Part shown: positions 709 to 55,664 of the stretch, in pieces | How the letters are laid out: every line of letters begins with the position of its first letter | Numbering within the stretch: position 1 is the stretch's first letter | Origin: Escherichia phage 4E8 | DNA: 64,000 nucleotides | Reading direction: 5' to 3' (one strand) | Sequence record: OQ689734.1 | Translations under genes and position numbers: made by a program | Notes under the pieces: model-generated | Database searches by the model: none | What the model was told of the DNA's origin: nothing | Seen by the model: the letters and a program-made list of their open reading frames with translations, nothing else

Positions 709-975
709 ATGTTTCTAGACTTTTTATCAGAGGTACTTCCCTACTTCCGCACTGAGACATGTGCATTCAAAGTTGAAGAAGATGGAGACACTGAAGTAAT
801 AACTTGTTTGGGTAGATTAGTAGACCTAGACGATGATGAAGATTTTGATGTTACAATAGATTTGAGTTCATTGGGTTGGTTGTATATGCGTTGCTTTATA
901 ACCTACAAACCTGAGACTTATAAAGATTATCGCTATAGTGATAACGTAAATACTGAAGGAGAGAATGATGAATAA
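709..975 (+). CDS. hypothetical protein; start moved to the ATG at 709, which has a GAGGAG Shine-Dalgarno sequence upstream
   Basis: ORF track 676..975; internal ATG preceded by gaggag; acidic protein, first gene after the repeat-rich leader. Confidence 0.4.
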   Translation: MFLDFLSEVLPYFRTETCAFKVEEDGDTEVITCLGRLVDLDDDEDFDVTIDLSSLGWLYMRCFITYKPETYKDYRYSDNVNTEGENDE

Positions 976-1624
976 CAATATGACAGGAACTAATACACTG
1001 AATGCAATCTATGAGAACATGGGATGTAAAGGCGAGGTTGTTTACAATGGTAATCTCCGACCTTTATCAGAGGATATTCTCTATCTGAATAGTGTTCATG
1101 AAACTACTGGAGGTAAATCTCGAGTTGAGATGGTAAAACAACTGGCTCATGGTTCTGTGTATGGGTATGCTCCTTCAACCCGTGAAATATGGGAAGGTTT
1201 GATTCCTCGTACAGAAGCTAAAGATGTGAAAGACTATTTCACTGTAGCAAAAGAAGTTAAACGTAAGTGTCCATCCAATTTAGAAGTTGTTCCGTATGTA
1301 GCTGACAGACATGCACACCTACCGGACTATGCCCGTGAGATGATTGAGATGATTGAAGAAGCCGAGTATGAAGCTCTGAATAATTATTTAAATTCAAAAG
1401 ATCAATGGTCACGTAATGTAGTAGTTGATGAAGAAGGTAATGAAGTAGTTACGTGGGTGCATGTTAGTGAACAAGCTCTGGACCCCGAGCTTGAAGAATA
1501 CAAAAAATTTTTGGCGTCCTCTTCTTTTGATGTAGAGAATGACAAGTCCGTTCCAGTTGGCTGGGAAGGTGAAACTGTAGCTCTCCAGACTTTGTTCAAC
1601 CTACACGTAGGTGATGTAGATTAA
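965..1624 (+). CDS. hypothetical protein
   Basis: 219 aa ORF with ggagag SD before the ATG; followed by a terminator hairpin. Confidence 0.5.
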   Translation: MMNNNMTGTNTLNAIYENMGCKGEVVYNGNLRPLSEDILYLNSVHETTGGKSRVEMVKQLAHGSVYGYAPSTREIWEGLIPRTEAKDVKDYFTVAKEVKRKCPSNLEVVPYVADRHAHLPDYAREMIEMIEEAEYEALNNYLNSKDQWSRNVVVDEEGNEVVTWVHVSEQALDPELEEYKKFLASSSFDVENDKSVPVGWEGETVALQTLFNLHVGDVD

Positions 1625-1635
1625 TAAAAGGTGTT

Positions 1636-1660
1636 GCCTCCTCTCGTGGGAGGCTTTTTG
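1636..1660 (+). terminator. rho-independent terminator-like hairpin (gcctcc...ggaggc + TTTTT)
   Basis: GC stem followed by a T-tract immediately after the stop of 965..1624. Confidence 0.5.
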
Positions 1661-1689
1661 TTATAACGATAATGTAGAAGGAGTATAAG

Positions 1690-2163
1690 ATGTTTGGAGA
1701 AAAAGGAGAACTCACGCCTGCACAGGTAGCTGAGATTACAGGAAGACTGCCCGGAGTAACGGAAGAACTTGAATCCAAGGGCATGGAACCAAGCACAGGG
1801 AAGTTCACTAAAGGTAATAAATTTGGACGTCCCAAAGGTAGTAGAGGTAAATTGACACAGCTCATGCTCGATCGTGTTGCTGCTAGTCATCTGTCTCCTG
1901 ATGAAGTGTTGATTCAGATTTATGAAGATCCAAATATTCCACCCGATCTTAGATTCAAGGCTGCAAGTAAAGTCGCTGATCTGGTATATCCTAAGGCAGC
2001 TTCTGTTGAGGTTAAGATTGAGGAAGAGAATGTAATCAACGAAGAATCATTGAATGCACAAATCAAGGACTTCTTGACTGGAGCACTTGGTGTCGACGTT
2101 ATGCCTCCAGAAGAAGACAACTCTGAGGACGCTGAAAAGGGGGAGGAAGCGGACGAGAGTTAA
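1690..2163 (+). CDS. putative terminase small subunit (by position and a basic GRPKGS segment)
   Basis: 157 aa ORF directly upstream of the large terminase; basic DNA-binding-like N-terminal part, acidic C-terminus; aaggag SD. Confidence 0.4.
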   Translation: MFGEKGELTPAQVAEITGRLPGVTEELESKGMEPSTGKFTKGNKFGRPKGSRGKLTQLMLDRVAASHLSPDEVLIQIYEDPNIPPDLRFKAASKVADLVYPKAASVEVKIEEENVINEESLNAQIKDFLTGALGVDVMPPEEDNSEDAEKGEEADES

Positions 2164-2324
2164 TTAAAGGAAACAGGGAGCTGTCGAAGATCATCTGATT
2201 AGCAATCTAAGGGTTGTTATAATTTTATTGCCACGATGATCTTTTGCAGTGTACCCTTGTAGTGGAGAGGGGAGGTTCTTTGACGAAGGGACTTTCCCTT
2301 TTCTATTTTTAAACTGGAGGAAGT

Positions 2325-3866
2325 ATGTCATTAGATAAACAAATTTATGAAGCTCTAACTGGTAACAACCTTAGTGTAGACGAAAAGAAAGCACTATTGA
2401 ATATGTTGAAAGAGCGTGACCAATGGAGGAAGTATAATAGGATTTTGTCTTTCAAGGCGTATGACTTCCAAAAGAAATTTTATGCAGCAGGATTGAAGCA
2501 TCGCTTTAGATTCTTGTGTGCAGCGAACCGTGTTGGTAAATCTTATAGCGAGGCATACGAGTTTGCTTGTCATGTCACAGGTCGCTATCCAACTTGGTGG
2601 ACAGGATATAAATTTAAAAGACCTATCCTTGCATGGGCAGTTGGTATTACAGGGGATTCCACAAGGAAAGTATTGCAAAAGGAATTGTTTGGTACACCTA
2701 TCGGAAAGGATACAAATTTATTAGGGACAGGTGTCATTCCTCGTGATGCTATCGTCATTGACACGATAGAGCGAGATGGTAACAAACTTCAAATCGTACA
2801 AATCAAACATCAAAATGAAAGAGGAGAGTTTGACGGTTTAAGTACATTAGAATTCCGTTCAACCCAACAGGGTGAACACACATTGATGGGTGCAACAGTT
2901 GACTACATTTGGTTAGACGAAGAAGATCCATATGAATCTATGGCAATCTTCTCTCAGTGCGTAACACGTACACTTACAACTAAAGGTTTAGTTACTATTA
3001 CAGCTACACCAGAGAACGGTTTAACAGAGCTGGTGGATAAGTTTATGAAAGGTGAAGGAGATGAGAACACAGGTTCTCTGTATTTCCAGAATGCTTCTTG
3101 GTGGGATGCTCATGTAGATTTAGGTGGACATATCACTGACCAAGATATTAAAGACATGACTGAAGGTATCCCAACATGGCAGTTAGAGATGCGTTCAAAA
3201 GGTATGCCGTTGCTTGGTTCTGGTTTAATTTATGATGTATCAGATGACATGATTAAGTGTGATCCCTTTGAGATACCTGATACGTGGAAACGTGTTTGTG
3301 CTATTGATATTGGTATCGATCACCCGACAGCCGCTGTTTGGACAGCATATGATGCTAACACTGATACGATTTATGTTTATGACTGCTATAAAGAAGGTGG
3401 ATTTACTCCGGTGTATCATGCACCAGCTATTAATGGTCGTGGTCAGTGGATTCCAGTTATTCTTCCTCACGATGCCGATAATATTGAGAAGGGAAGTGGT
3501 TCGTCTGTTGCTCAATTCTATAAGAATGCAGGGGTTAATGTACAGAGTGAGACCTTCTACAACAAGATTGGAATGGATGGTAAGAAGAACTTCTTTGTAG
3601 AGCCGGGAATTACTGATATTCGTGAACGTATGATGTCAGGTCGTTTTAAAATCTTTAACATTGCTTCATGTGCTAAACTCTTTGAAGAGAAAGCTCGCTA
3701 TCACCGTAAGGTTGGCAAGATTGTTAAGGAACATGATGACTTGATGGATGCTATGCGATATTCAGCTTGTTCTGTAACACATCGTGGACGTAGTAAGCAT
3801 GATGCTAGTTATGGTAGTTCATCGCTTTATCAAGACAATATTAACAGATGGAATCAGACCTACTAA
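2325..3866 (+). CDS. terL: terminase large subunit
   Basis: 513 aa; Walker A-like FLCAANRVGKSY and Walker B-like IWLDEED in the N-terminal ATPase part; C-terminal nuclease-sized domain; located at the head of the morphogenesis module. Confidence 0.85.
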   Translation: MSLDKQIYEALTGNNLSVDEKKALLNMLKERDQWRKYNRILSFKAYDFQKKFYAAGLKHRFRFLCAANRVGKSYSEAYEFACHVTGRYPTWWTGYKFKRPILAWAVGITGDSTRKVLQKELFGTPIGKDTNLLGTGVIPRDAIVIDTIERDGNKLQIVQIKHQNERGEFDGLSTLEFRSTQQGEHTLMGATVDYIWLDEEDPYESMAIFSQCVTRTLTTKGLVTITATPENGLTELVDKFMKGEGDENTGSLYFQNASWWDAHVDLGGHITDQDIKDMTEGIPTWQLEMRSKGMPLLGSGLIYDVSDDMIKCDPFEIPDTWKRVCAIDIGIDHPTAAVWTAYDANTDTIYVYDCYKEGGFTPVYHAPAINGRGQWIPVILPHDADNIEKGSGSSVAQFYKNAGVNVQSETFYNKIGMDGKKNFFVEPGITDIRERMMSGRFKIFNIASCAKLFEEKARYHRKVGKIVKEHDDLMDAMRYSACSVTHRGRSKHDASYGSSSLYQDNINRWNQTY

Positions 3867-8599: not shown

Positions 8600-9123
8600 C
8601 AGTAGACAGTGTGACTGTTAGCCCTGCGTCTTTAGCAAGCCTAGAGACAGGGGCTACTCGGCAGTTCACTGCAAGCGCGGAGAAAAGTGATGGTTCTACC
8701 GAAACAACTGGCTTTACTTGGTCAGTGACAGGAGGTGGTTCTATCACTCAGTCGGGTTTGTATACTGCTCCGAGTGCGTCTCAATCCACTGATGTATCCA
8801 TTACTGCAACTTTAGAAGGTGTTTCTGGTACAGCAACCATTTCTGAAATTGTTGCTCCTGCTCCTACTATTGTAGCTAAGGGTCCAATTACGGGTAAAAC
8901 TGGTGGTTCTTCCACTAACTTCACTACCATGTTTACTGTAACTAATTCTACTGCTGCGGATTACACGTTTGTTGTAACCCCTACAGAAGCTGGTACAGTA
9001 AGCGCCGCTGGTGCGTTAACCTTAGATGCTGCTGCAAGTGGCGAAGTTACTGTTCAAGCAAGTTTGACAGCTGACCCATCCATCAATGCAACATGCACTT
9101 TTACTGGTGTAACACCTGCTTAA
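7544..9123 (+). CDS. predicted frameshift-extended capsid protein with C-terminal Big_2-type Ig-like domain(s), about 526 aa
   Basis: -1 frame after the slip reads GGGVTVDSVTVSPASLASLETGATRQFTAS..., a Big_2-like motif beginning exactly at the junction; the stand-alone ORF 8611..9123 starts with GTG and has no SD. Confidence 0.45.
8581..8587 (+). other. candidate -1 programmed ribosomal frameshift slippery heptamer G_GGA_AAG
   Basis: X_XXY_YYZ heptamer in the capsid zero frame 11 nt before the capsid stop; the -1 frame is open from 8521 to 9123. Confidence 0.5.
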
Positions 9124-9130
9124 AACTAGA

Positions 9131-9156
9131 CCCTGCCTTCGGGCGGGGTTTTTTCG
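9131..9156 (+). terminator. rho-independent terminator (ccctgcc TTCG ggcgggg + TTTTTT)
   Basis: GC stem with UUCG tetraloop and a 6-T run after the capsid/Ig ORF. Confidence 0.6.
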
Positions 9157-9224
9157 TTTTAAGACCTATACAAGCTAGTGTGTAATGTATATTCTTTGTC
9201 TACATACAACTAGGAGGACAATCT

Positions 9225-9971
9225 ATGGCGATGCCAGACGTTCAAAACCCAATTAATACCTACGGATGGCTTAAGAAGGCTGTGTCCCTCTGGGCTGACC
9301 GTGATGACCCTGAATTTGTTAATCAAATTCCAAACTTTATTAACTTTGCAGAAAAGGAAATCTACCGTAATTTACGTATTCCTCCTCTGGAAAAAGAAGT
9401 CTATTTAGATATTAAAGATGGTGTGGCTTTTATTCCACCAGATTACTTAGAAGCTCAGTGGATGATGAGATCTAAAGATGGTTTAATCTTCCGTGTAACC
9501 TCTCTCGAAGAAGTGGATTGGCTCAAACGTAATAACTCAGTCAACCCAACCAATTGGAATCAGGGAGAAGTTGTCTTTGCTCGTTTAGGTAGCCGGTTTA
9601 TTTTCTACCCTGCAATTGAAGCAGATACTCCAGTTTACCCTGATGATGGTAGCCCTGAGATTCCAGCAGAGAACTCAGTTATTCTCAGCTATTATGCTGA
9701 CCCACCGGAATTCTGGGAAGATTCAGATACAAGCGCTATTCTTACTATTGCCCCAGAACTTCTTCTGTACTTCACCCTACGTCATGCTTGTCTCTTTGTT
9801 CAAGATGATAATGGTGTTCAGAAATGGTCAGCATTAGGAAAAGCTATCCTTGATGAAATAGTAGAGCAGAATAAGAAACAAGAGTACTCAGGTTCACCTT
9901 TAGTTATTCCTAACACGATTAGCCGTCTACATAGCTCTCGTGAAGTATATGGGATTCGTCGTTTTAGATAA
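9225..9971 (+). CDS. virion structural protein (possibly head-tail connector or adaptor; positional)
   Basis: 248 aa, strong SD aggagg, between capsid and tail-fibre genes. Confidence 0.4.
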   Translation: MAMPDVQNPINTYGWLKKAVSLWADRDDPEFVNQIPNFINFAEKEIYRNLRIPPLEKEVYLDIKDGVAFIPPDYLEAQWMMRSKDGLIFRVTSLEEVDWLKRNNSVNPTNWNQGEVVFARLGSRFIFYPAIEADTPVYPDDGSPEIPAENSVILSYYADPPEFWEDSDTSAILTIAPELLLYFTLRHACLFVQDDNGVQKWSALGKAILDEIVEQNKKQEYSGSPLVIPNTISRLHSSREVYGIRRFR

Positions 9972-30886: not shown

Positions 30887-31246
30887 CTAGATTAAATCGT
30901 AATACTTAATAATATCAGAGAGCTTAAACTCTCTAATGTCATTCTTGTCATTATCCCAAGCGGTCATTATCCAACAAGGTTTGCCCCCATTATGATAACG
31001 GGAAGAAGCAACTGAGGTTCGTATAGGAATAACGGAGCGGTCTGCAATCTCGCCTCTCCAGTTACGATAGCTAAAGCGAAGAGTTTGTTTCGTAGATACT
31101 TGATCATTTGTGCTTTCCTTGTTCATGGATTCAAAGACTTCCTTTTCTTCAGGAGTCTCTAGATTTTTTAAATTCGCGTCTTGCATCGTTTTCTTCCTTA
31201 GTTTTAATCTTATGGCAGGGTTCTTTACACAAGACTTGAAAGCCAT
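30887..31246 (-). CDS. hypothetical protein
   Basis: 119 aa ORF, last gene of the minus-strand block. Confidence 0.4.
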   Translation of the reverse strand: MAFKSCVKNPAIRLKLRKKTMQDANLKNLETPEEKEVFESMNKESTNDQVSTKQTLRFSYRNWRGEIADRSVIPIRTSVASSRYHNGGKPCWIMTAWDNDKNDIREFKLSDIIKYYDLI

Positions 31247-31553
31247 CTACTTCAACCAAAGCTCTTTCGATGATTTCATCCCAAGATGCTTCATGGTCCA
31301 CTGGAACAATGGGATTGATGTGGTCAACAGCTACTTCCTTAAGAGGGTAGTCATTACCACACATGGCACACTTATAGTGCATTGCCAGCTTACCAGTCTT
31401 AGGGTTGATCTTGCGTTCTGTCTGAGCTTCTTTAAGAGAGTCAAACATAGGCTTCCACTTTCTAGTCAGAGAACGAATCCCTGACTTGATGAAGGAATTG
31501 TAACGTGCTTCAGTCCATGTCCCAGAGCACCTAGTCTTCTCAGCCTTCGCCAT
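31149..31553 (-). CDS. HNH endonuclease (free-standing, homing-endonuclease-like); start set to internal Met (MAKAEK)
   Basis: C-terminal CAMCGNDYPLKEVAVDHINPIVPVDH...LCKEPCH: Cys pairs plus the DH...N...H core; the N-terminal 56 aa of the track ORF look non-coding. Confidence 0.6.
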   Translation of the reverse strand: MAKAEKTRCSGTWTEARYNSFIKSGIRSLTRKWKPMFDSLKEAQTERKINPKTGKLAMHYKCAMCGNDYPLKEVAVDHINPIVPVDHEASWDEIIERALVEVDGFQVLCKEPCHKIKTKEENDARREFKKSRDS

Positions 31554-31731
31554 AACCAACATCCATATCAGCATCTTCCCAAATACGTTTGTTAATACGA
31601 TGTGATTCTTTTTCAGCACGAGGGATACGTCCAGTACGACGATCAAATGCTTGATGTTTAATCTTCTGGTCTTTGCGAGACTCACGATTAGAGGAATTTT
31701 CATCATACGAACGATAATCAAACTTACCCAT
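31540..31731 (-). CDS. small basic hypothetical protein
   Basis: 63 aa charged ORF with protein-like composition. Confidence 0.3.
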   Translation of the reverse strand: MGKFDYRSYDENSSNRESRKDQKIKHQAFDRRTGRIPRAEKESHRINKRIWEDADMDVGYGEG

Positions 31732-32261
31732 TATTCAGTTCCTTCTGTTTTTAAGTAATCACGATCCATATAGTAGGTTTTAACGGAATCTTGAGATGGT
31801 GTTGGGTCAAAAACTACCAACATACTCCCTTTTGTGTTTCCGTTAACAGGGACTCTAGTATCAGCTCTTACAAAACTAATACGTCCTCCTGTTATAAACA
31901 TTATACTATTAGCATTTATCCTACACTTATCAAACCATCGAACTGAAGTATCCGCTGGAATAAGTAGAACTGTTCCAACATTGTGGTCCTGTTGATTTCT
32001 AATTGCCAAGTCAACCCACGGTCCAATATCTGAATATGGTGGATTACACCAAACATAACTACCTCTAAACACTTCAAAGTCATAAGTCAGAGCATTATCT
32101 TCCTCTGATATGAAAGTGCTAACTAGGTGATTGTCTTGACTTGCTGCAATATCACATACGAAGTGTTTATTCTTATTAACATAATTAAACAACCACTGAG
32201 GTGTTTGCCACAAATCTCTTATATCTACCGGAGTGTGTGAGCTTCTATAATCTGTTACCAT
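31731..32261 (-). CDS. DNA N6-adenine methyltransferase (phage Dam-like)
   Basis: 176 aa; WCNPPYS catalytic motif (NPPY) typical of N6-adenine methyltransferases. Confidence 0.65.
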   Translation of the reverse strand: MVTDYRSSHTPVDIRDLWQTPQWLFNYVNKNKHFVCDIAASQDNHLVSTFISEEDNALTYDFEVFRGSYVWCNPPYSDIGPWVDLAIRNQQDHNVGTVLLIPADTSVRWFDKCRINANSIMFITGGRISFVRADTRVPVNGNTKGSMLVVFDPTPSQDSVKTYYMDRDYLKTEGTE

Positions 32262-33100
32262 GTTTTATCCAACCAAGTCCATTCGAATAAGTCACCTTCA
32301 GCTTGTCCAACGAATAGCAATCGAGCATTTTCTAACATCTTAGCTTCTGCTTCTTCCTCGAACCTCTTATAGTATTCCATTCGTATAATATGATAAAGAG
32401 TCCACTTATCGAATACCTTCTCAATAAGTTTGATAGCAGCTTTGCTACCAATACCCTTACGACGCATAACTAAATTACCGCCCCACATCATTTCAACTTT
32501 CTCACCACACCCGGGGATGTTATCTGTACTATCCCCAATCAACATCTGATAGAAGAAGTTCTGCCATGCTACTTCCTCTGATACATAATGAGGGGGTACT
32601 TCTTTCTGTCGTTCACCACAAGCCCAGCGATAATGCCATCCGGGAGTGATTAACAAATCCTTATCACGAGTACAGATGATTGTGTTCTTTTCTATACGCT
32701 GTCGTTCAGCGAGTGCATCATCTGCTTCTCTGCCAAACACTTCAACATACTGGTAATGTTCTTTGATATAATCACTAACGTTCTGCCAGTGATGAGGTCT
32801 TTCTCCCGGTGGTCGATTAGCTTTATAACCTTGCTGCTTAGCAATATCAAACCGAAAATTACCACCTTCGCTGAAATAGAAGACAGTTTTCTCACAACCT
32901 GACCTTGCAATGATTACGTCAATTTTGTGTTGAAGGCGTTCGATCAAGAATCCATAATCAACTGGAACACGACCTGTGTCTAGGAAAGGATGCTCTTGTG
33001 TAAGAGCACCAACCTCATACCGTAGAACATCTGCATCCACAATTGCTACTTCAGGATAGATTACATCAGACATAGAGATCTCTCCGTGTCCTTTCAACAA
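32255..33100 (-). CDS. 5'-3' exonuclease / flap endonuclease
   Basis: 281 aa; acidic metal-binding clusters (DADVLRYEVG, EADD) and a helix-hairpin-helix-like GDSTDNIPGCGEKV...GIGSKAA segment. Confidence 0.7.
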   Translation of the reverse strand: MLKGHGEISMSDVIYPEVAIVDADVLRYEVGALTQEHPFLDTGRVPVDYGFLIERLQHKIDVIIARSGCEKTVFYFSEGGNFRFDIAKQQGYKANRPPGERPHHWQNVSDYIKEHYQYVEVFGREADDALAERQRIEKNTIICTRDKDLLITPGWHYRWACGERQKEVPPHYVSEEVAWQNFFYQMLIGDSTDNIPGCGEKVEMMWGGNLVMRRKGIGSKAAIKLIEKVFDKWTLYHIIRMEYYKRFEEEAEAKMLENARLLFVGQAEGDLFEWTWLDKTW

Positions 33101-39064: not shown

Positions 39065-40912
39065 TTAGTGAGTGTGATTCCAGTTTAACCCAATCTTACA
39101 GTCAGATGCCAGAGGGCATTCCATTTTGAGATACTCACCTGCTTTACGAACACACTCTTCAGTGAGGGTACGAAGTTTGTTAACATCGTCACGATGTACA
39201 GTGAACTGGCCTTCATCATGCATGTCAATAACCTTCGCACAACGAACACCATCACGCTCAATCCATTTATTGAGGAATAGCATTGCATACTTCATAACAA
39301 TCGCCCCAGCGCTCTGTAAGAGTGTATTTAAGGCTTTATGGACCATAACCTTTCCAGTTGCATCTCTTCTCATTGTAATACGACGTCCATCCACACCGTA
39401 GATATATCCACTTTGTGCTTTCTCTGTCATACGTTCAATAAGGATTGCAATACAAGGATTCTCTGCTAAGAATCTTGCTCTCATGATAGCCCCTTCGTCA
39501 GAGCCTCCACCAACGATAGAACCGAGCTTAGCATCACCTGCACCATAGTTAAAGGCATATATAAACGTCTTAGCGTTATCACGAGTAGGAAGACCAGCAA
39601 GTTTTTGGTTATGTGAGTGAATGTCTCCTTCTAAAAGAATATCTCTGTACATAACAGCAGAAGCTAGACCGCGTTCAGCTTCTCGTTTCTTAGCTGGGTT
39701 GTTTTCTCGCTCTGCTTCAGCGAGCATCTCACGACATTCTTTAATAAGGTAGTGAGCTAGCATCCTCAGCTCAAGACCAGAGCCATCGTAACCTAAGAAG
39801 ATTTCACGACCAGCAGGTACATAGAACTTATAGGCACCTACAGGTTTGTCTTTCTTGCCCGGTTTTCCCACTTCGTAGATAATGTTAGTACCTTTTCGTA
39901 CGTAACACCCATCAGGGATATGGTTGGTAATGATGAAAGGATGGTTATGACTGTCGTCTGAGGAATAGTCAGATTGAAAAAGACTGCGGCACTCGTGACC
40001 AAACAAACCGCGAGAAGGAATATTAACAACAATGCGATGTTTAAAACGAAATGTCGGAGTAGCGCAGCTATTAGCTTCGGCGGACAACTTACCATCTTTA
40101 CGTTCCTTGTCGATAAGCCCGCTAATCAAACCTAGCCTGTGAGCCGCTACAACACGTCTCTTAAGCAAGCTTCCTACACCCCCTAGCTCACCCCCAAGCC
40201 CCTCTTCAAGAGTCTCCTCAAGGTTTGTAGGGGCTGTGGGCCACTTGTTTGATGTAGCCAAAGCTTTTTTGATTTCATCAAAGGTTACAGGTTTCTTCCT
40301 ATTCGGATTAAGACCTAAACCACTGACGTAGGCTTTCATGTAGTTGACAGTGTGATAACGGAAATGTTTATCCAAAAATCTTCGGATATCAGCATCTATC
40401 ATCTCCGCTATCTGTTTCTCTTTAGCATTACCTCGAATCCAAGCAGAATACCATGCAGAGTATGTACCATACTTCTTCATAGCTTTACGAATTTCAAAAG
40501 TATTCCAAGGTTTCTTAGAATAATTCCACTCTGGAGGTATAAAACCTTCATCCATCAAGGCTTCTTTAATACGTGCATCTTTTGATGGGTCAAAATCTAC
40601 ATACTCAACGCAAGTAAACGCCCCACCGATATCTTCTCTTTTAAGACCAACCCTATCGCAATAGAGCTGAGGCCACTTCTGTAAAGCACCTGATTTCTTA
40701 AAAGGCTTAGCATAAGTTGAACCGTCCACCCGCATTTTGGGGAGGAGAGGAATCAGTTCTTTATCAATATTGACAATAATCTCTTTGAGAAGGTGAACAA
40801 ACCACCGAGCGTTTCTTCTGTTGAAGTTGACTCCATGCTTCGCCTGTTTTGAGATTATATCAGCGACTGTCATCTCCGTTATGAAAGGTAACTTATCAGG
40901 GTTATCCATCAC
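39065..40912 (-). CDS. DNA polymerase, family A, polymerase domain only
   Basis: 615 aa; motif A FLGYDGSGLELR, motif B RDNAKTFIYAFNYGAGDAKLG (RxxxKxxxFxxxYG), motif C MHDEGQF; no 3'-5' exonuclease motifs in this ORF. Confidence 0.85.
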   Translation of the reverse strand: MMDNPDKLPFITEMTVADIISKQAKHGVNFNRRNARWFVHLLKEIIVNIDKELIPLLPKMRVDGSTYAKPFKKSGALQKWPQLYCDRVGLKREDIGGAFTCVEYVDFDPSKDARIKEALMDEGFIPPEWNYSKKPWNTFEIRKAMKKYGTYSAWYSAWIRGNAKEKQIAEMIDADIRRFLDKHFRYHTVNYMKAYVSGLGLNPNRKKPVTFDEIKKALATSNKWPTAPTNLEETLEEGLGGELGGVGSLLKRRVVAAHRLGLISGLIDKERKDGKLSAEANSCATPTFRFKHRIVVNIPSRGLFGHECRSLFQSDYSSDDSHNHPFIITNHIPDGCYVRKGTNIIYEVGKPGKKDKPVGAYKFYVPAGREIFLGYDGSGLELRMLAHYLIKECREMLAEAERENNPAKKREAERGLASAVMYRDILLEGDIHSHNQKLAGLPTRDNAKTFIYAFNYGAGDAKLGSIVGGGSDEGAIMRARFLAENPCIAILIERMTEKAQSGYIYGVDGRRITMRRDATGKVMVHKALNTLLQSAGAIVMKYAMLFLNKWIERDGVRCAKVIDMHDEGQFTVHRDDVNKLRTLTEECVRKAGEYLKMECPLASDCKIGLNWNHTH

Positions 40913-45459: not shown

Positions 45460-45675
45460 TTAGTAATGAATCTTTTTATAAACCATGTTGCTTCCACTTT
45501 CTGTTTCAATCCCTTTCTGGATTGTAATCTTAGAAGCACCAGTGTTAACAATTTTTAAAGCTCGCTTAAAGCGGCGAGCCTCTTTCCGTGTGGAGTATGT
45601 TGAGAAGCTAGGGATTGTGCTATCAAAATTAAACCACTTAACTACCCAAAAAGTAATCCAAGGTTTCTTTTCCAT
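45460..45675 (-). CDS. small protein, member of a 4-copy paralog family
   Basis: 71 aa; shares W..V...TRKEAR..K..LK and C-terminal ...HY with 47542..48163 genes. Confidence 0.4.
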   Translation of the reverse strand: MEKKPWITFWVVKWFNFDSTIPSFSTYSTRKEARRFKRALKIVNTGASKITIQKGIETESGSNMVYKKIHY

Positions 45676-47541: not shown

Positions 47542-47751
47542 TCAGTAGTAAATTACTTTAGACATAAAAGAACCAGTGTTAGGGTCTTCATACCAGCGAT
47601 GTATGTCAGCGCTTTTTACTATTGTGCCCAGAATCTTCAACTGTTTCTTAGCAATACGAGCCTCTTTGCGAGTGTCAAACAATTTGATGCTATCTTTTCT
47701 CGTGTGTTGATCAAGATCCCAAACAACACGAATCGCCCACATCTTTTTCAT
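47542..47751 (-). CDS. small protein, paralog family member
   Basis: 69 aa; W.IRVVW...TRKEARIAKKQLK...YY. Confidence 0.4.
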   Translation of the reverse strand: MKKMWAIRVVWDLDQHTRKDSIKLFDTRKEARIAKKQLKILGTIVKSADIHRWYEDPNTGSFMSKVIYY

Positions 47752-47966
47752 TAGTAGTGCACCTTTCCGCTGATATAAATACGGCCTGAGGTATACTCAT
47801 AGCCCTTGAGAATCTTAACAGAGGTAGTGGAGCCATCGTTTAGTGCACAGATTGACTTCTTAAGATTGCGTGCATCTTCTCGTGTCTTCTGGTAGGTCAT
47901 GGTCACACCCCCACTCTTCCACTCTGTTTTAACTAACCAAACTATTTTCATAAGACCTGCTCTCAT
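47751..47966 (-). CDS. small protein, paralog family member
   Basis: 71 aa; IVWLVK...TREDARNLKK...HY; 1-nt stop/start overlap with neighbours. Confidence 0.4.
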   Translation of the reverse strand: MRAGLMKIVWLVKTEWKSGGVTMTYQKTREDARNLKKSICALNDGSTTSVKILKGYEYTSGRIYISGKVHY

Positions 47967-48163
47967 TAGTAGTACACCTTGCTTCCAGCCATGAACGCCC
48001 CTGTCGAGCTTATCATGGCTTTGCTGATAGTAACTTTCTTACACCGTAAACATACCTTCCAATTCTTTTTACAGATTCGAGCTTCTTGTCGAGTGTTACA
48101 AAAAATAGCCGAAGATATTTCTTGAGTGTTGTTGTCATAAACACGAACACACCACTTTTTCAT
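47966..48163 (-). CDS. small protein, paralog family member
   Basis: 65 aa; W.VRVY...TRQEARICKK...YY. Confidence 0.4.
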   Translation of the reverse strand: MKKWCVRVYDNNTQEISSAIFCNTRQEARICKKNWKVCLRCKKVTISKAMISSTGAFMAGSKVYY

Positions 48164-48366
48164 TTTACTAAACCCTTCATGTAATCGTAGAGGTTGTTAG
48201 AAGCTTTGCCCCATTCGACATGCTTCTTATCCATGTAATCCTTAAAGATTTCTCTATTATTTTCGACACACGTATCATACTGCTGACACGCTCTGCCAAA
48301 TGTCATAGCTGTTAACTGAACCTCAGTAGTTAAACCTTTAAGTTCTTGAAACTCTTCTTCAGTCAT
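48160..48366 (-). CDS. hypothetical small protein
   Basis: 68 aa ORF. Confidence 0.35.
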   Translation of the reverse strand: MTEEEFQELKGLTTEVQLTAMTFGRACQQYDTCVENNREIFKDYMDKKHVEWGKASNNLYDYMKGLVK

Positions 48367-48900
48367 TTAGACACCCTTAGAAGCAACTACACCCTCGCTA
48401 CCATTATAGCGACCCTTAACTGCATAGGAATGTTCACCGGCATGTGAATGCTCAAACATTACCATCTGACCGACACGCATACCAGCACGAACACGTAAGC
48501 TGTGGTGCTTGGTTACGTTGTGGAATTCGAACGTCAGCTTGCTATTATTAAACCCAGCGTCTGCCCACCCGGCGTGAAGGTGGTTCAAGCCACAACGAGC
48601 CATTGAGGAGCGGAGTACAAACAGACTTGAGAGGTTATCTGGAAGGTTAAATTCTTCCATTGAGTGAGCTAAGAAGAACTGTCCCGGAGTGATGACAATA
48701 CCATCTTCAGGGATTTTCACCTCTTTCCACTTGAGGTTTTCTTTAGCATCAATATCAACAATGCCGTCAGCCTGTTCTTCAACAAGGATAGTATCACCAA
48801 TACGGATATCCACACTAGCAGCGTTAACATATTTATGCTCCGCATCTAAAAAGCCATTATCAATAACGCTGTGTAATTCTTGAGAACCTAAAAGACTCAT
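48367..48900 (-). CDS. dCTP deaminase family (Dcd/dUTPase-fold) protein
   Basis: 177 aa; AASVDIRIG, LRSSMARCGL, HAGWADAG and GRYNGSEGVVASKG parallel conserved Dcd segments. Confidence 0.65.
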   Translation of the reverse strand: MSLLGSQELHSVIDNGFLDAEHKYVNAASVDIRIGDTILVEEQADGIVDIDAKENLKWKEVKIPEDGIVITPGQFFLAHSMEEFNLPDNLSSLFVLRSSMARCGLNHLHAGWADAGFNNSKLTFEFHNVTKHHSLRVRAGMRVGQMVMFEHSHAGEHSYAVKGRYNGSEGVVASKGV

Positions 48901-50315
48901 GAGTTTCTGTTTCCTTGTACAGATGATGCCAAATTGTTAATCATGTTACGAGCTGTTTCACGAGACAGTGTAACACCTGCTAAGTTACTATCAAGTTCAC
49001 CAACCATTTCACGAGCAGCAGATCGTAGTTCTGCACCAAGTGCAGTATTAGAGTGAGCCAAACCATTACGACGACTATAAGGGCGAGGGGCTTCGTTAGC
49101 GTCATTAGCTAAAGATGCAAAGCCAGTACGAGCAGCTTCACGAGCCGCTATCGCTGCTACTTGATCTTCCATATGGGTTGGCACATCACCAACTTCTACA
49201 CGTTCTATATCACTAGCACGTAGACCCTGAACAACAGAGCTTACTGTTTCCCATGAACGACGAGAACGCTGTAAATCTCCCATTGACGGAGAAGAAGCAG
49301 GACGAATAGTTACCCCACCTGTGTCATGAGTTACATGCCATGTATGGTTGTGGGTGTCCGTCCCAGAAGATCGTGCACTACCAAAACTGCCAGTGAAAGT
49401 GTCACGTCTGTTAGTTCCTGGAGTCCAAGGTTGTGTGATTGCTTCAGCACCGATAGTAACTAACCCACTAGACCATTCTGTCTGTAGGTTAACTTCTTCA
49501 TCCAGATAAATATGACCTACTTCCGGAGGAATATTTAATGCAACCTCCATCATCTTCAAGGTATAATGACGACGTTGATTCTGATACAAGTTTACACCAG
49601 CCATAGGTCCAACTAGATCACTGATAAGATGAACTTCTGGCTCACCAAAAGCACCCATCGCAAGGTGCATGTATTCAGTAGAACTGCTATAAACTGCAAC
49701 AGTTGCTTCAGGCCACTTTTTGTGAACATATTTCATTTCACGACTTGATACTACAGGAATGTCACGAGTATACGACATTGCAAACAAACCTTCATCTGAC
49801 ACATACATGTCATCAAGAGTCATGAAACCCTGACAGATCATAGGGAAGCGACCACATAGAGTGTTCATATCCAGAGGAAGGTTAATCATCATCTGAATCT
49901 TCACTTCATCAATCTCAATTTCCAGAATCTCTTGGAAAATGAAAAGTGCATCAGCGTAAGTTGCTCCGGTGATAGGCTGAGCTAAGCGAGATGTAACTTG
50001 AAGCCCCTTACTCTCTGTCCAAGACAAGAAGTTGTCAAGGAACAGTGCAGCATTACTTACGTTAGCAGGGCTGTTTTCCTGACGAGTGTTCCAACGTAAT
50101 CCTCCTTGAACTAGGAAGATATCAACATCATTCGGAGTTCGGTTTTGGAAGAACGTATCACGAATAGCACCACCTGCAATAACAGGGTAGATACCATCAG
50201 GAACTACGTTGTCTCTGATCAGATTGCGAATCAGATCAAGCCCTACGCTGAGGGCTTCTCCTTCTTGAAGGTTTAATTCAGACAATGGAATCTTAATCAT
50301 TTCTACATTTTCCAA
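48897..50315 (-). CDS. nucleotidyltransferase (Pol-beta superfamily) domain protein with long C-terminal extension
   Basis: 472 aa; [23 protein letters not shown] fits hG[GS]x(9-13)DxD of minimal nucleotidyltransferases (CCA-adding/poly(A) polymerase head); C-terminal ~250 aa unassigned. Confidence 0.45.
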
Positions 50316-50851
50316 TTTAGAGATGGGGGATTCTTATAATCAAATCCAGCCATTTGACAAAGACACATGTAAACTTTAACTGTCAAGTTAACGTCTTGCT
50401 CACAATAGGTGAACATGTCTTCAGTGAATGCGTCCCATGCCTCCTCCTGTTCTCCATAATCTCCTTTCAGCTCCCCAAGAAACTCGCCCCATTGTCTGAG
50501 GCCGTGACCACGAGGGCCATGTCTAGGGTCGCCTTTGGGGTATTCTGGACTATCACCAATACGGTCAGGCTTGAGATATCTACTCAGGCACAAAGTATCG
50601 AAGACGTTAAAGCGAAAAGGTATCACATGAGAATAAAACTTAAACAAAGCAGGAAGGTCAAAATCAATAATATTGTGACCTATTACTACATCAGCCTCTT
50701 TCAGTTTGTGTAGTGCTTCTTCAATTTGGTGAGGGCGATACCCCCACCGCTCTCCAGATAATACATCAAATATCCAGATACACCAGACATTCTGAATACC
50801 ATCATAGAGATTATCCCCCTCAATATCAAACGCATACAGTTTCTTTACCAC
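50303..50851 (-). CDS. DnaQ-like 3'-5' exonuclease (stand-alone)
   Basis: 182 aa; Exo [12 protein letters not shown], Exo II-like [14 protein letters not shown]; overlaps the primase-helicase stop. Confidence 0.65.
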
Positions 50852-52635
50852 GGACGTGCCTCCCCTTCTTGTGCAAGTAAGGAAGCTGCATCCTCTCCAT
50901 TGGTAACGGTAAAAGGATGCTCTTCATCAACTTCATGATCTTCTCGTTCTACAAGACGACCTGTTTCATTGATGTATTTGGTATAGCAAACCCCTGTCTG
51001 TCCATAGTTACGCTCTTTGAGCAGTCGTATGATTGACAAGTTTTTACCTAACCCATCCGCTTGTTTGTTACGTTCAAAACCAATAATACACTGACACCAG
51101 CGCATCAATGAACGTGAACCAGTAAACTGTACTTCTTTAACCTGACCACCTTCTTCGTGAGGTGCACCACCTGCCGGAGCGTTCAAGTGAGATAATACAA
51201 AAGCAGTGAAGTCTAATTCCTTACACATACCAGCAAGCTCTGAAGCAATCTTGCTGATTTCTGTGTTTACCTCAGATGGGGTTAAGTGAGATACCAATGC
51301 AGTGATGTTATCAAGAATGATAAATTTACACTGATTCTCAACTACCCAAAAGCGAATACACTGCTTAATGTCTTCCCACTCGTTCTGCCCAAAATTGTCA
51401 TACAAGAAAAACTTATCAGCGTATCGAAGTGCTTCATCTCGTAGCTGGCTTTCTTCGTACTCAACATCTGGTCGGTGGAATGGAATAGATGCAGATTTAC
51501 CTGCAATGTTCTTAACAGACATGCCTACCTTCTCTTCCAAGAAGAAGCCACCACCATTAAAACCATGCTCAAGGCAAAGCCATGCTACTAGTTCGTGTGC
51601 GATTAAGGTTTTACCTGAACCAACACCACCGCCGATTGCAACCATCTCTCCCCAACGAATACCAAAGGTCATGTCGTTAAGAGTTTTCCACGGATAAGGA
51701 ATACCCCATTCCGCTTTCTTCAGAGCATCTTCGAGGCAATCAAAAACTGTAACAGCGCCGGCAGGAGATTCCCGCTTAGCTGAATATTTCAGATTGTTGA
51801 AAAGCTCTTGACCTCTCCCTGCAAGTAACATGTCGTTTGCATCTTTGATTTCCTTTTCTTGTCCGTTATAAGTGAACGTACCTTTTGGAATCCTTGCAAA
51901 CTTAACATGCGGGTACAGAGAACGACCCTTAGTTAAAGCAATCTCACCTGCATCATCATTGTCCATGCAGAGTACAATCTCCTCGAAACCATTAATAAAA
52001 TCACGGTTTCTTGATAATACAGAAGAGATTGAACCTGCACCGAACGGAAGAGAGACGCAAGCAGGTTTGATGTTAGTTGCGTTTGTAAACGCGGTAAGTA
52101 CGTGGAACCCAGACATACAAGAGAGAGGATCTTCAAAGATGAAGAGTTTCTTGTTGTATACGTCACCACGTTGTGCTTGAGCCATACCAAACAAGTCGGC
52201 TTCTTTCACATTACCTACATAATAGAACTTCTTGCTGTCTAGAAGTTTTACTTCATATCCAACAATGTTCCCATCACGTTCACGAGGGAAGAAGTAGCTG
52301 TCAGGAGTTTGACCATCTGTTTGGCTTAAACCGATACGGCATCCATAACGTTCAGATACAGCTTTAGGAATTAAGCGACGAGTCAACTCTCCCTGAGGAA
52401 GCTCTAAGCAATCGTCTAAGACTTCTCGGAGTTCTTCAGGGGACAGCTCTTTCTTTTCATTAGGAGTGGGCGTCGTTCCTTTCTCGAAGATTTCATACGC
52501 ACCACATCTGTTACATGAACCCCACTCCTCACCGGACTCTTCATTTCGGAAGAGAATCATGTGATTGCGGGTCTTATCACGACCATGAGAGATACACTCT
52601 TTACAGCCTGTGTCTCCCAAAATGATCTTTGACAT
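50845..52635 (-). CDS. primase-helicase (T7 gp4-like architecture)
   Basis: 596 aa; N-terminal Cys4 zinc-binding element (CKEC...CNRC), central TOPRIM-like region, C-terminal helicase with Walker [10 protein letters not shown]. Confidence 0.8.
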
Positions 52636-52670
52636 GCTCTATCCTCCTTGGAATTCCTTGAGCAATCTTC

Positions 52671-52877
52671 TTAGTAAAACGATCGTATTTCTTCCCACAC
52701 ATCATCTTGCAAGTTTCTAAAACCCTGCAAGGTTTGCTTTGTTCTGTGAATAAATTCTTCAGAGTGCTTGTCGGGTGTGAGCATACTGACAAACTTTTCA
52801 TAGCGATTAATCTTCCACCGCATCTTCAAGTAGTCAGATTCCAGCTTTCTTAACTTCTGCCTGTCAGTTACTGTCAT
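52671..52877 (-). CDS. hypothetical small protein
   Basis: internal Met of ORF 52671..52973 chosen to limit overlap with the upstream gene. Confidence 0.3.
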   Translation of the reverse strand: MTVTDRQKLRKLESDYLKMRWKINRYEKFVSMLTPDKHSEEFIHRTKQTLQGFRNLQDDVWEEIRSFY

Positions 52878-53295
52878 CCTTCTCACCTGCCAGATATGCT
52901 GTCCAGTCACCAGATTCAACCAGAACATCTTGTTCTTCGTCGATGTGATAAATCCACGCTTCCACAGTTTCACCGCTGTCCAATAATACTGGAATCAGTG
53001 TACGCTTGTAAAAGGTGTATGGGTTATCATTACCACGATGACCTTCCAGACCGTCATACGGACCTTCCAGACCAGCTTGGGTTGTTTCAAAGACTTCTAC
53101 ACGAACAGGCTTACCATTGCTGTCATGCTCCAAAGATACACTTGGGAAGTATGCTGTGCAATACTGATACAGGTTACAGTTGTTTACTGTCCACCCTTCA
53201 CCAATAGACACACCACCTGCACGAGCATTGATAGCGTGGTTGTGTTGACCTTTACGAAGAGAACCATACGTTGCAACTAATACTTTATCAGACAT
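52864..53295 (-). CDS. gamma-glutamyl cyclotransferase-like (GGCT/AIG2 fold) protein
   Basis: 143 aa; N-terminal VATYGSLRKG (YGSL motif) and VRVEVFETT...LEGPYDGLEG resembling the GGCT catalytic-Glu region. Confidence 0.6.
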   Translation of the reverse strand: MSDKVLVATYGSLRKGQHNHAINARAGGVSIGEGWTVNNCNLYQYCTAYFPSVSLEHDSNGKPVRVEVFETTQAGLEGPYDGLEGHRGNDNPYTFYKRTLIPVLLDSGETVEAWIYHIDEEQDVLVESGDWTAYLAGEKDDSN

Positions 53296-54428: not shown

Positions 54429-55664
54429 TTACAGAGTTACTGCTACTTCGCTACCTTCAACACTGACAGACTCTAACTTGCGAGGGTTATGAATCTGGAC
54501 TGGATTGACCGGAACGTTCCAACCACTGCGGTAGAAGTTACGACCATCACAGAACAGGATGACATTGGCAGACATTGCATTCGGTTGCAGGTTGTTGTGG
54601 ACATGACGGATATTTGCAATCCAGTAGCCACGAGACAAAGTGTAGCCAGTAGGTGCATTACGAATAGTTTGAGTATTCATCTGACCTTCCAGTTGCATTT
54701 CTTCAGGAACCACATCAACTGAATCAATCGGCTGTGCTACTTGTCCTTCCAGTGCAAAGTTTTCATCATCAGCACTTTCAATATCATCCACCAACTCACC
54801 GTCTCCATCTTCAATCGGAGTCTGGTAAACCACTTTATACTGAGGAGTATAGAGAGGGTTCTGAGCTTTAACAAACTCAAGAATGTTATGACGGTAGGTA
54901 TCCAGAGTTGTACCAGTCAGGCCCGGTGCTGTATTAACTTCCAGTACCCACGCTTCTTGACCTTTGGTGATAATATCAACTGCACCGAAATCCAGACCCA
55001 TTGATTCAACAGCTTTCACCGCATTGATCAGAGAGGCGTCATTCGGAGCATCTGTGAAGGAGCTTGAGTAAACCCAGCCAGTGTGGTGATTACGAATATC
55101 TTCACGATAGTTAGGGTCTTCTCGATAACCGTTGCGACGAATCTTCTTCTGAACATAGGTGATTACACCTTTGAACACATGGACACGCCACTCACGACGT
55201 GGGCCTTGAATGCCTTTAGTGTACAGTTCAGCTCGACCAAGACCATCACCCGGTTCTACAACAACAATGCCCGAACCAGAGTGACCAGTCAGCTCATGGC
55301 GCTCATACACAATATTACCAGTGTTTGACCACTCTTGAGCAGTCTCTTGAACATCTGTGTATTCCACAGTTTTAACACCTGCTTGGTCCATCACGCTGAA
55401 AGCACGACGTTTGTTCGCTGCCATATGTAAGGCTGCGGTACGGTTAAGGACGGTTGCAGAACCAAAGAATGATTCAGGATAGCGACGGTTCCCGTAGTTA
55501 ACAACCACATCACCTTCACGAGAACGCCAGCGGCTATTCTCTGAAAGAAGACCCATCACGTTAGCATTGATGCGTTCATCACGGATAGTATCACTGATAG
55601 CAGATACTAGAGCGTTAACAGAATCAGACGGGCCATACGGAAGAACACGGATACGAGTAGTCAT
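54429..55664 (-). CDS. ATP-grasp family ligase
   Basis: 411 aa; MGLDFGAVDIITKGQEAWVLEVNTAPGL matches the C-terminal ATP-grasp signature (D....g...vlEvN..Pg) of RimK/glutathione-synthetase-type enzymes. Confidence 0.55.
   Translation of the reverse strand: MTTRIRVLPYGPSDSVNALVSAISDTIRDERINANVMGLLSENSRWRSREGDVVVNYGNRRYPESFFGSATVLNRTAALHMAANKRRAFSVMDQAGVKTVEYTDVQETAQEWSNTGNIVYERHELTGHSGSGIVVVEPGDGLGRAELYTKGIQGPRREWRVHVFKGVITYVQKKIRRNGYREDPNYREDIRNHHTGWVYSSSFTDAPNDASLINAVKAVESMGLDFGAVDIITKGQEAWVLEVNTAPGLTGTTLDTYRHNILEFVKAQNPLYTPQYKVVYQTPIEDGDGELVDDIESADDENFALEGQVAQPIDSVDVVPEEMQLEGQMNTQTIRNAPTGYTLSRGYWIANIRHVHNNLQPNAMSANVILFCDGRNFYRSGWNVPVNPVQIHNPRKLESVSVEGSEVAVTL

Follow-up and report, generated by a model that had tools for sequence, protein, structure and literature searches.

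An accessory nucleotidyltransferase with an invariant active site and a fast-diverging sequence between the exonuclease and dcd genes of Escherichia phage 4E8

Introduction

Recognition of the gene studied here as a nucleotidyltransferase (NTase) is not new: RefSeq calls its orthologs 'nucleotidyltransferase', a similar note stands in the record of phage NJ01, and the BASEL-2 study highlighted a conserved locus of dcd, NTase, and replication genes (PMC11990801). The same study reported that the Gordonclarkvirinae are strongly resistant to restriction–modification (RM) with no known modification pathway, and speculated that a DNA modification such as deoxyuridine (dU) from the dcd-NTase locus may explain this resistance (PMC11990801). 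Proteomics of phage SU10 listed the NTase ortholog among the early gene products (PMC4281155). Autographiviridae and other podophages encode short phage NTases of 165–225 residues (LKD16 ORF16, LIMEzero, PP2, RSB3, phiAS7, Cd1, and Gp22 of Klebsiella phage fHe-Kpn01) that carry the annotation 'poly(A) polymerase head domain' or 'nucleotidyltransferase', and our search of the literature turned up no biochemical work on them. Here we analyze the NTase gene in a stretch of 64,000 nucleotides of Escherichia phage 4E8 (sequence record OQ689734.1), called the window below. Its source is a phiEco32-like podophage of the Gordonclarkvirinae, and between 46 and 53 kb the window is 90–96% identical in nucleotide sequence to Suseptimavirus genomes (SU7, IME267, and Bas87).

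What is new here is that the NTase occupies a variable slot between the exonuclease (exo) and dcd genes, and that it has diverged far more than its neighbors. We propose that it is an active, minimal NTase of the class II lineage, an accessory enzyme adding tails to the 3' ends of RNA and serving in host takeover or counter-defence; the probability of this statement as a whole we put at roughly 40%.

Results

The NTase gene and its start codon

The gene lies on the minus strand and is read as follows:

48897..50300, minus strand: NTase coding sequence, 467 residues from the ATG at 50300, TGA stop at 48897..48899, matching phrog_12715 over its full length
50301..50315, minus strand: five-codon extension (MENVE) from a TTG start, probably untranslated, overlapping the end of the exo gene

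An earlier note on this DNA, made from the sequence alone, gave the open reading frame (ORF) as 48897–50315. The frame is real, runs unbroken from 50315 to 48897 on the minus strand and counts 472 residues from the TTG in the ORF list, but translation probably does not begin at the TTG at 50315. The start is almost certainly the ATG at 50300, because three observations agree: the 467-residue product is 100% identical to the deposited phage 4E8 protein (labeled 'hypothetical protein'), the alignment with phrog_12715 starts at residue 6 of the 472-residue version, and the homologs all begin M-I/Y/L-x-I/V at the position equivalent to this ATG. Residues are numbered below by the 467-residue version.

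Fold and class II affinity

With the single NTase sequence as query, Pfam, NCBIfam, PADLOC, and PDB returned nothing useful, and the protein itself has no match at all to PF01743 (PolyA_pol head). In PHROGs it belongs to phrog_12715, 'nucleotidyltransferase' (E 5.4e-151, residues 6–465 of the 472-residue version). When residues 1–330 were run with HMMER exhaustively against 1.84 billion cluster representatives, only 29 relatives came up, and these served as the family set; 18 of the 29 touch PF01743 below threshold (best E 2.5e-4). Searched against PDB, the family profile found the CCA-adding enzyme 6ibp IVGGAVRDLLLGKTPHDVDV (E 0.005) with motif A alone aligned. For hhalign, class II reference profiles were built from Escherichia coli Cca and PcnB and then from a 12-sequence Cca/PcnB head-and-neck set; here too only motif A aligned (E 6e-4).

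An AlphaFold2 model on the family alignment is confident for residues 1–285, while most of residues 286–467 have a predicted local distance difference test (pLDDT) score below 50. The model contains the alpha/beta core fold of the Pol-beta superfamily, and the top 25 Foldseek matches in PDB were all class II tRNA NTases, over 210–335 aligned columns. In BFVD, the short phage NTases matched the core over the whole target, with template modeling (TM) scores of about 0.6 (target-normalized) and E values from 1e-4 to 1e-9; one of them, LKD16 ORF16, which lies between helicase and ligase genes, has motif A in common with the window NTase (hhalign E 4e-4). Profile, alignment, and fold checks thus all agree with the earlier assignment to the Pol-beta superfamily, and this assignment together with the class II affinity is well supported.

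The NTase fits neither of two other branches of the superfamily: it does not show the profile match, effector operon, and best structural match of a CD-NTase (cGAS/DncV-like), nor the combination of palm, fingers, thumb, and 8-kDa domains with templated DNA synthesis that marks a Family X DNA polymerase.

An invariant catalytic core

The catalytic elements of the protein are the following:

49656..50300, minus strand: catalytic core, residues 1–215, Pol-beta-type NTase head with an acidic surface
50121..50174, minus strand: motif A (GG...DxD), with G43, G44, R47, D48, D58, and D60 invariant, aligning to motif A of 6ibp
49929..49931, minus strand: codon of E124, candidate third catalytic carboxylate, on the modeled beta-strand 122–130
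49710..49742, minus strand: helix motif R187-[DE]188-x-x-Y191-x-x-[KR]194-K195-x-P197, with Y191 and K195 invariant

Motif A reads IAGGAIRD...NDVDIF, an hG[GS] loop followed by [DE]h[DE]h at a spacing of 9–13 residues, which is the Pol-beta signature. This minimal signature had been noticed in the N-terminal region from the sequence alone, and it is not a chance match because it is invariant in the family: G43-G44, R47-D48, and D58-x-D60 are kept in 29 of 29 representatives, in an alignment in which overall identity among members is only 22–30%. The alignment therefore confirms the catalytic pair D58/D60, and it adds a third acidic residue, since position 124 is acidic in all 29 sequences (D in 16, E in 13). 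Further invariant residues are F62, Y115, I125, Q136, P153, Y191, and K195. Conservation of the whole triad argues for a catalytically active enzyme, and we consider it highly probable that the protein is an active NTase of the Pol-beta, class II type.

Beyond motif A the resemblance to class II enzymes fades. No conserved basic-basic-acidic motif corresponding to motif B (RRD) precedes the Q136 strand, and hhalign aligned nothing past motif A, although the class II profile is shallow (only close Cca relatives were found) and a very divergent equivalent of motif B could escape it. The EDxxR of class II motif D is absent from the NTase; the helix 187–195 is similar to it in pattern and spacing, and its R-[DE]-x-x-Y-x-x-[KR]-K pattern is a possible counterpart. 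RNA-binding body or tail domains gave no Pfam match in the NTase, PF12627 included, and the core (residues 1–215) carries a net charge of −11 with an estimated isoelectric point (pI) of 4.6. The NTase is not a canonical CCA-adding enzyme or poly(A) polymerase I (PAP I), because it has no alignable motifs B and D, no RNA-binding body or tail, an acidic core, and neither a tRNA gene nor an RNA ligase or Pnkp-type partner with it in the window.

A variable slot between exo and dcd

Two genes flank the NTase:

50303..50851, minus strand: proofreading 3'-5' exonuclease of PolA type, one subunit of a split T7-type DNA polymerase, 182 residues, PF01612, phrog_403/38876, upstream
48367..48900, minus strand: Dcd-family dCTP deaminase-like gene, PF22769 (E 8e-35), downstream

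Profile matches agree with the exonuclease and Dcd-family neighbors named in the earlier note, the exonuclease being of PolA type (PF01612). The overlapping stops and starts that it described hold on one side only: the dcd ATG overlaps the NTase stop codon (ATGA), but the exo stop and the NTase ATG are separated by a gap of 2 nucleotides. The order primase/helicase, exo, NTase, dcd was kept in every case examined, namely Kuravirus (phiEco32 gp73, NJ01), Nieuwekanaalvirus (KBNP1711), Suseptimavirus (SU7, Bas87), and metagenomic relatives whose NTase is only 22–25% identical. For cultured phages, every family member used as probe retrieved one and the same set of 97 Escherichia and Shigella records.

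In the Grimontviridae sister lineage (Privateer, ECO319P1), exo is followed directly by the PF22769 Dcd gene, with no NTase between them. Aeromonas phage APT65 carries in the exo|dcd slot a 131-residue ORF (L016 7325..7720) that has no detectable homology and is unrelated to the NTase. Because the slot is empty in the former phages and holds another ORF in the latter, the NTase sits in a variable slot and neither neighbor needs it; the exo|dcd junction behaves as an accessory-gene hotspot. The gene had been described as embedded in a replication/nucleotide operon. That description does not stand, as the sister phages keep exo and dcd without the NTase, which is an accessory insertion and not an integral part.

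A promoter and terminator scan of positions 48000–53000 gave fewer promoter-like sites than shuffled sequences and nothing usable; the promoter annotated upstream of the gene in SU7 is a prediction.

Divergence far above the neighboring genes

Amino-acid identities of the window phage to phiEco32 and to KBNP1711 set the NTase apart from the module around it:

Primase/helicase: 93% to phiEco32, 93% to KBNP1711
Exo: 80% to phiEco32, 80% to KBNP1711
Dcd: 94% to phiEco32, 96% to KBNP1711
Dps: 85% to phiEco32, 96% to KBNP1711
NTase, whole: 30% to phiEco32, 33% to KBNP1711
NTase core: 37% to phiEco32, 41% to KBNP1711
NTase tail: 24% to phiEco32, 24% to KBNP1711

Nucleotide similarity to phiEco32 ends 5 nucleotides into the NTase ORF and resumes 21 nucleotides into dcd, so that the boundaries of divergence match the ends of the NTase gene. 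Between genera, the nonsynonymous substitution rate (dN) of the NTase is about 0.8, against 0.04–0.14 for the neighbors. Within the genus, its ratio of nonsynonymous to synonymous rates (dN/dS) is 0.11–0.18, against 0.004–0.055 in most neighbor comparisons; the one outlier, exo against SU7 (0.125), involves very few substitutions. The gene is maintained and its active site is frozen, while the remainder diverges far faster than the surrounding module. Either accelerated change or allele replacement could have produced this pattern, which is typical of host-interaction genes but could also come from weak constraint alone.

The C-terminal half

Downstream of the core, two regions can be distinguished:

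49446..49655, minus strand: helical subdomain, residues 216–285, small and confidently modeled, poorly conserved across the family
48900..49445, minus strand: disorder-like tail, residues 286–467, low-confidence model, rich in A, S, G, R, and T

The earlier note had described about 250 residues without a recognizable motif after the N-terminal signature. This holds for the disorder-like residues 286–467, but the chain is folded up to about residue 285 and includes E124 and the 187–197 motif. What follows residue 215 cannot be aligned between family members and is anywhere between 54 and 275 residues long, and the short members end at about 275 residues. Within the genus, pairwise identity is 87% in the C-terminal region against 94% in the core, dN/dS in the C-terminal region is 0.17–0.31, and there is an in-frame insertion/deletion (indel) hotspot near residues 299–330, at which the window phage represents the shortest tail variant of the genus. 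The terminal 47 residues are 93% identical within the genus and thus conserved like the core. We infer that the tail consists of a flexible linker and a terminal interaction module.

Two more specific readings of the tail were considered and rejected. An acidic/aromatic C-terminal tip like that of single-stranded DNA-binding protein (SSB) or gp2.5 is not a consistent feature, as some members end in W or F and the window protein ends in NRNS. Nor is the tail a basic RNA-binding extension: its charge is −7 in the window NTase and, over the whole family, lies between −10 and +7.

As a separate observation, at about position 49402, in the tail, the match to SU7 at nucleotide level falls from 96.3% to 87.5% identity, beside an 83-nucleotide indel (L015 2414..2497). 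This suggests a recombination breakpoint within the tail-coding region, at the indel hotspot.

Restriction sites and DNA modification

Restriction-site avoidance was examined as a cause of the RM resistance and rejected: sites for four BASEL-tested enzymes are present in the window at the levels expected at random (EcoRI 16, EcoRV 24, EcoKI 7, and EcoP1 107). Other motifs depart from expectation. The 64 palindromic hexamers occur 647 times in the whole window against about 1075 expected, 8 of them having no site at all; CCWGG is found 3 times where about 75 sites are expected, and GATC 128 times where about 237 are. CAGCAG is enriched, with 97 occurrences against about 20. The phage also encodes ThyX (PF02511, E 1e-42). 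Blanket hypermodification or dU-containing DNA is unlikely, because CCWGG and many 6-bp palindromes are avoided and ThyX is encoded.

There is a slim chance that the NTase is the missing determinant of restriction resistance in the Gordonclarkvirinae, with DNA, deoxynucleoside triphosphates (dNTPs), or a component of the host's restriction or defence as its target. If so, it would provide a previously unknown, nucleotidyl-based protection, and its divergence between genera would be the trace of an arms race.

The window also encodes a Dam-family DNA N6-adenine methyltransferase of 176 residues (31731..32261, minus strand; PF05869, E 1.2e-49; phrog_111). In most related genomes, coverage of its 2.2-kb region reaches only about 76% and no methyltransferase is listed, and the gene appears to be a strain-variable insertion beside an HNH endonuclease gene (31149..31721).

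Other genes in the window and in a metagenomic relative

The T7-type family A polymerase is split in three genes, all on the minus strand: the 3'-5' exo (50303..50851; a proofreading domain of the T7 gp5 type), the polymerase (39065..40912), and the 5'-3' exonuclease (32255..33100), with exo and polymerase genes about 10 kb apart. A split PolA has been described for this phage group (PMC9965538). We considered whether the NTase might be a missing catalytic subunit of a polymerase otherwise annotated only by its 182-residue exonuclease and rejected this, as the PolA polymerase gene at 39065..40912 (PF00476, E 4.5e-24; also Bas87_0045) fills that place. In the metagenomic relative L009, an HNH insertion seems to break up the primase/helicase gene (717..3315), and intein and HNH domains are present in ThyX (8702..9760); homing elements have heavily colonized the same conserved module there.

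Four small paralogous proteins of 65–71 residues, 25–35% identical, are encoded on the minus strand at 47542..48163 and 45460..45675, three in tandem downstream of dcd and one near the thioredoxin gene. They have in common W5, T-R-x-x-A-R-x-x-K, and a C-terminal K(V/I)(H/Y)Y. Further along the minus strand lie a gamma-glutamyl cyclotransferase-like gene (PF06094, 52864..53295) and a RimK-like ATP-grasp gene (54429..55664; 'ribosomal protein S6 glutaminyl transferase', phrog_2599), which in Bas87 sit in a conserved cluster with glutamine amidotransferase and amidoligase genes.

Discussion

Our proposal is that the NTase derives from the class II lineage, that is, from the head domain of a CCA-adding enzyme or poly(A) polymerase. 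Its GGxxRD triphosphate-binding loop and two metals would bind a nucleoside triphosphate (NTP) as in class II enzymes, and an untemplated reaction would move the nucleoside monophosphate (NMP) to a 3'-OH, most likely that of an RNA (a host or phage tRNA or another RNA). The enzyme would act early in infection, in host takeover or counter-defence and not as part of the replisome, with the tail probably tethering it to a partner. RNA 3'-end tailing in an accessory, host-interaction role is the part that we hold tentatively. An invariant active site, a surface at 30% identity, and a gene-precise slot are what would be expected of a host-interaction or counter-defence factor. Gp22 of fHe-Kpn01 was toxic when expressed in E. 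coli (PMC7291057). Gp22 is a structural relative and not an ortholog of the window NTase, which limits what its toxicity can say for the latter. Overproduction of PAP I is also toxic, and the two toxicities together fit an RNA-directed activity.

Several other points weigh against this proposal. The acidic core is unusual for a protein that grips long nucleic acids. The window contains no tRNA gene, and no RNA ligase or Pnkp-type end-healing partner was found encoded. Translational coupling to replication and dNTP genes favors a role linked to DNA or nucleotides, and the fast evolution could reflect weak constraint and not an arms race. Motif B, by which class II enzymes tell NTP from dNTP, and motif D, their protein template for the base, are unalignable, and the caution voiced earlier, that sequence cannot decide the substrate, stands.

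The alternative that survives best keeps the counter-defence or host-takeover role and replaces the acceptor: a host protein would receive the NMP, or the enzyme would synthesize or cap a nucleotide signal, behind a surface shaped by an arms race. The hypervariable sequence around an invariant active site, the variable tail with its conserved terminal module, and the insertion in an accessory slot are all in keeping with this, and an acidic core is easier to reconcile with a protein or small molecule as partner than with a long nucleic acid. We nevertheless judge it unlikely. The nearest matches in sequence and structure are RNA 3'-end enzymes, not CD-NTases or NTases of the GlnE/GlnD type, there is no PADLOC match, and a within-genus dN/dS of 0.1–0.2 indicates purifying and not overtly positive selection; moreover, we know of no precedent for a non-polynucleotide acceptor in the class II lineage.

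A DNA- or dNTP-directed enzyme working with the replication genes, in 3'-end extension or capping, primer processing, or covalent DNA modification, would account for the fixed position between exo and dcd, with its 2-nucleotide gap and ATGA overlap, in all genera and in the metagenomic relatives, and for the recurrence of short NTases of homologous fold in T7-supergroup replication modules. Motif B, which discriminates the ribose 2'-OH, is undetectable, and this too would suit a dNTP substrate. The strong RM resistance reported without a known modification pathway led BASEL-2 to point to this very locus (PMC11990801), and the undepleted EcoRI, EcoRV, EcoKI, and EcoP1 sites mean that site loss does not explain that resistance. 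Such an enzyme is distinctly unlikely, however, as sister phages have exo and dcd without it and the neighbors evidently do not need it, and as a core replisome or modification enzyme is not expected to stand at 30% identity while its partners stand at 80–96%. The strong avoidance of CCWGG and palindromes argues against global hypermodification of the DNA, the presence of ThyX makes replacement of T by dU unlikely, and to our knowledge no Pol-beta-type NTase takes part in any DNA base-modification pathway.

Could the protein be a true tRNA CCA-adding or repair enzyme, restoring tRNA 3' ends cut by host or competitor nucleases? Its motif A is of class II type, the top fold matches are CCA-adding enzymes, and the general view of CCA-adding enzymes in phages is that they serve RNA repair (PMC7824862). 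We regard this as improbable, given that the tRNA-binding body and tail domains (with no PF12627 match) and detectable motifs B and D are lacking, that the host has its own Cca, and that tRNA genes are scarce, with none in the window and one in the relatives; besides, a housekeeping-type tRNA enzyme should be conserved and not 30% identical between sister genera. Finally, a non-catalytic NTase-fold scaffold or adaptor of the replisome, for which the tight coupling to exo and the long tail with a conserved end as a possible docking element might speak, is scarcely credible, because invariance of all catalytic and NTP-binding residues at 22–30% overall identity is hard to explain without catalysis.

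RNA tailing by an accessory NTase thus remains our preferred reading, and the members of the group that infect K-12 (BASEL Bas86–94) make knockouts and assays feasible.

Comparison with known systems

Among characterized enzymes, the class II tRNA NTases and PAP I (PcnB, 3aql; the CCA-adding enzyme of Bacillus stearothermophilus, 1miv) share with the window NTase the Pol-beta fold, a motif A of the form GGxVRD...PxDxD, and, on the strand that follows, a third carboxylate. Unlike them, the window NTase has a disorder-like tail in place of an RNA-binding body/tail and HD domain; it stays below the PF01743 gathering score, its motifs B (RRD) and D (EDxxR) cannot be aligned, and its core is acidic. 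The MenT/AbiEii toxins, which nucleotidylate the tRNA acceptor end, are also small stand-alone Pol-beta NTases, and relatives of the present fold, such as Gp22, can be toxic too; the window NTase differs from them in motif A and has neither an antitoxin partner nor a PADLOC match.

Closer at hand are the orthologs of phiEco32 gp73 in phrog_12715, of which the window NTase is a full-length member, with the same synteny in phiEco32, KBNP1711, NJ01, SU7, and Bas87. The Suseptimavirus-type allele found in the window is only 30–33% identical to the Kuravirus and Nieuwekanaalvirus alleles. The short phage NTases, like the window NTase, lie in T7-supergroup replication modules; they lack its tail of 180–270 residues, and the similarity in sequence is confined to motif A. 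The window NTase therefore belongs to a large set of minimal class II-type NTases in podophage replication modules, and the substrate of one of them would probably explain many.

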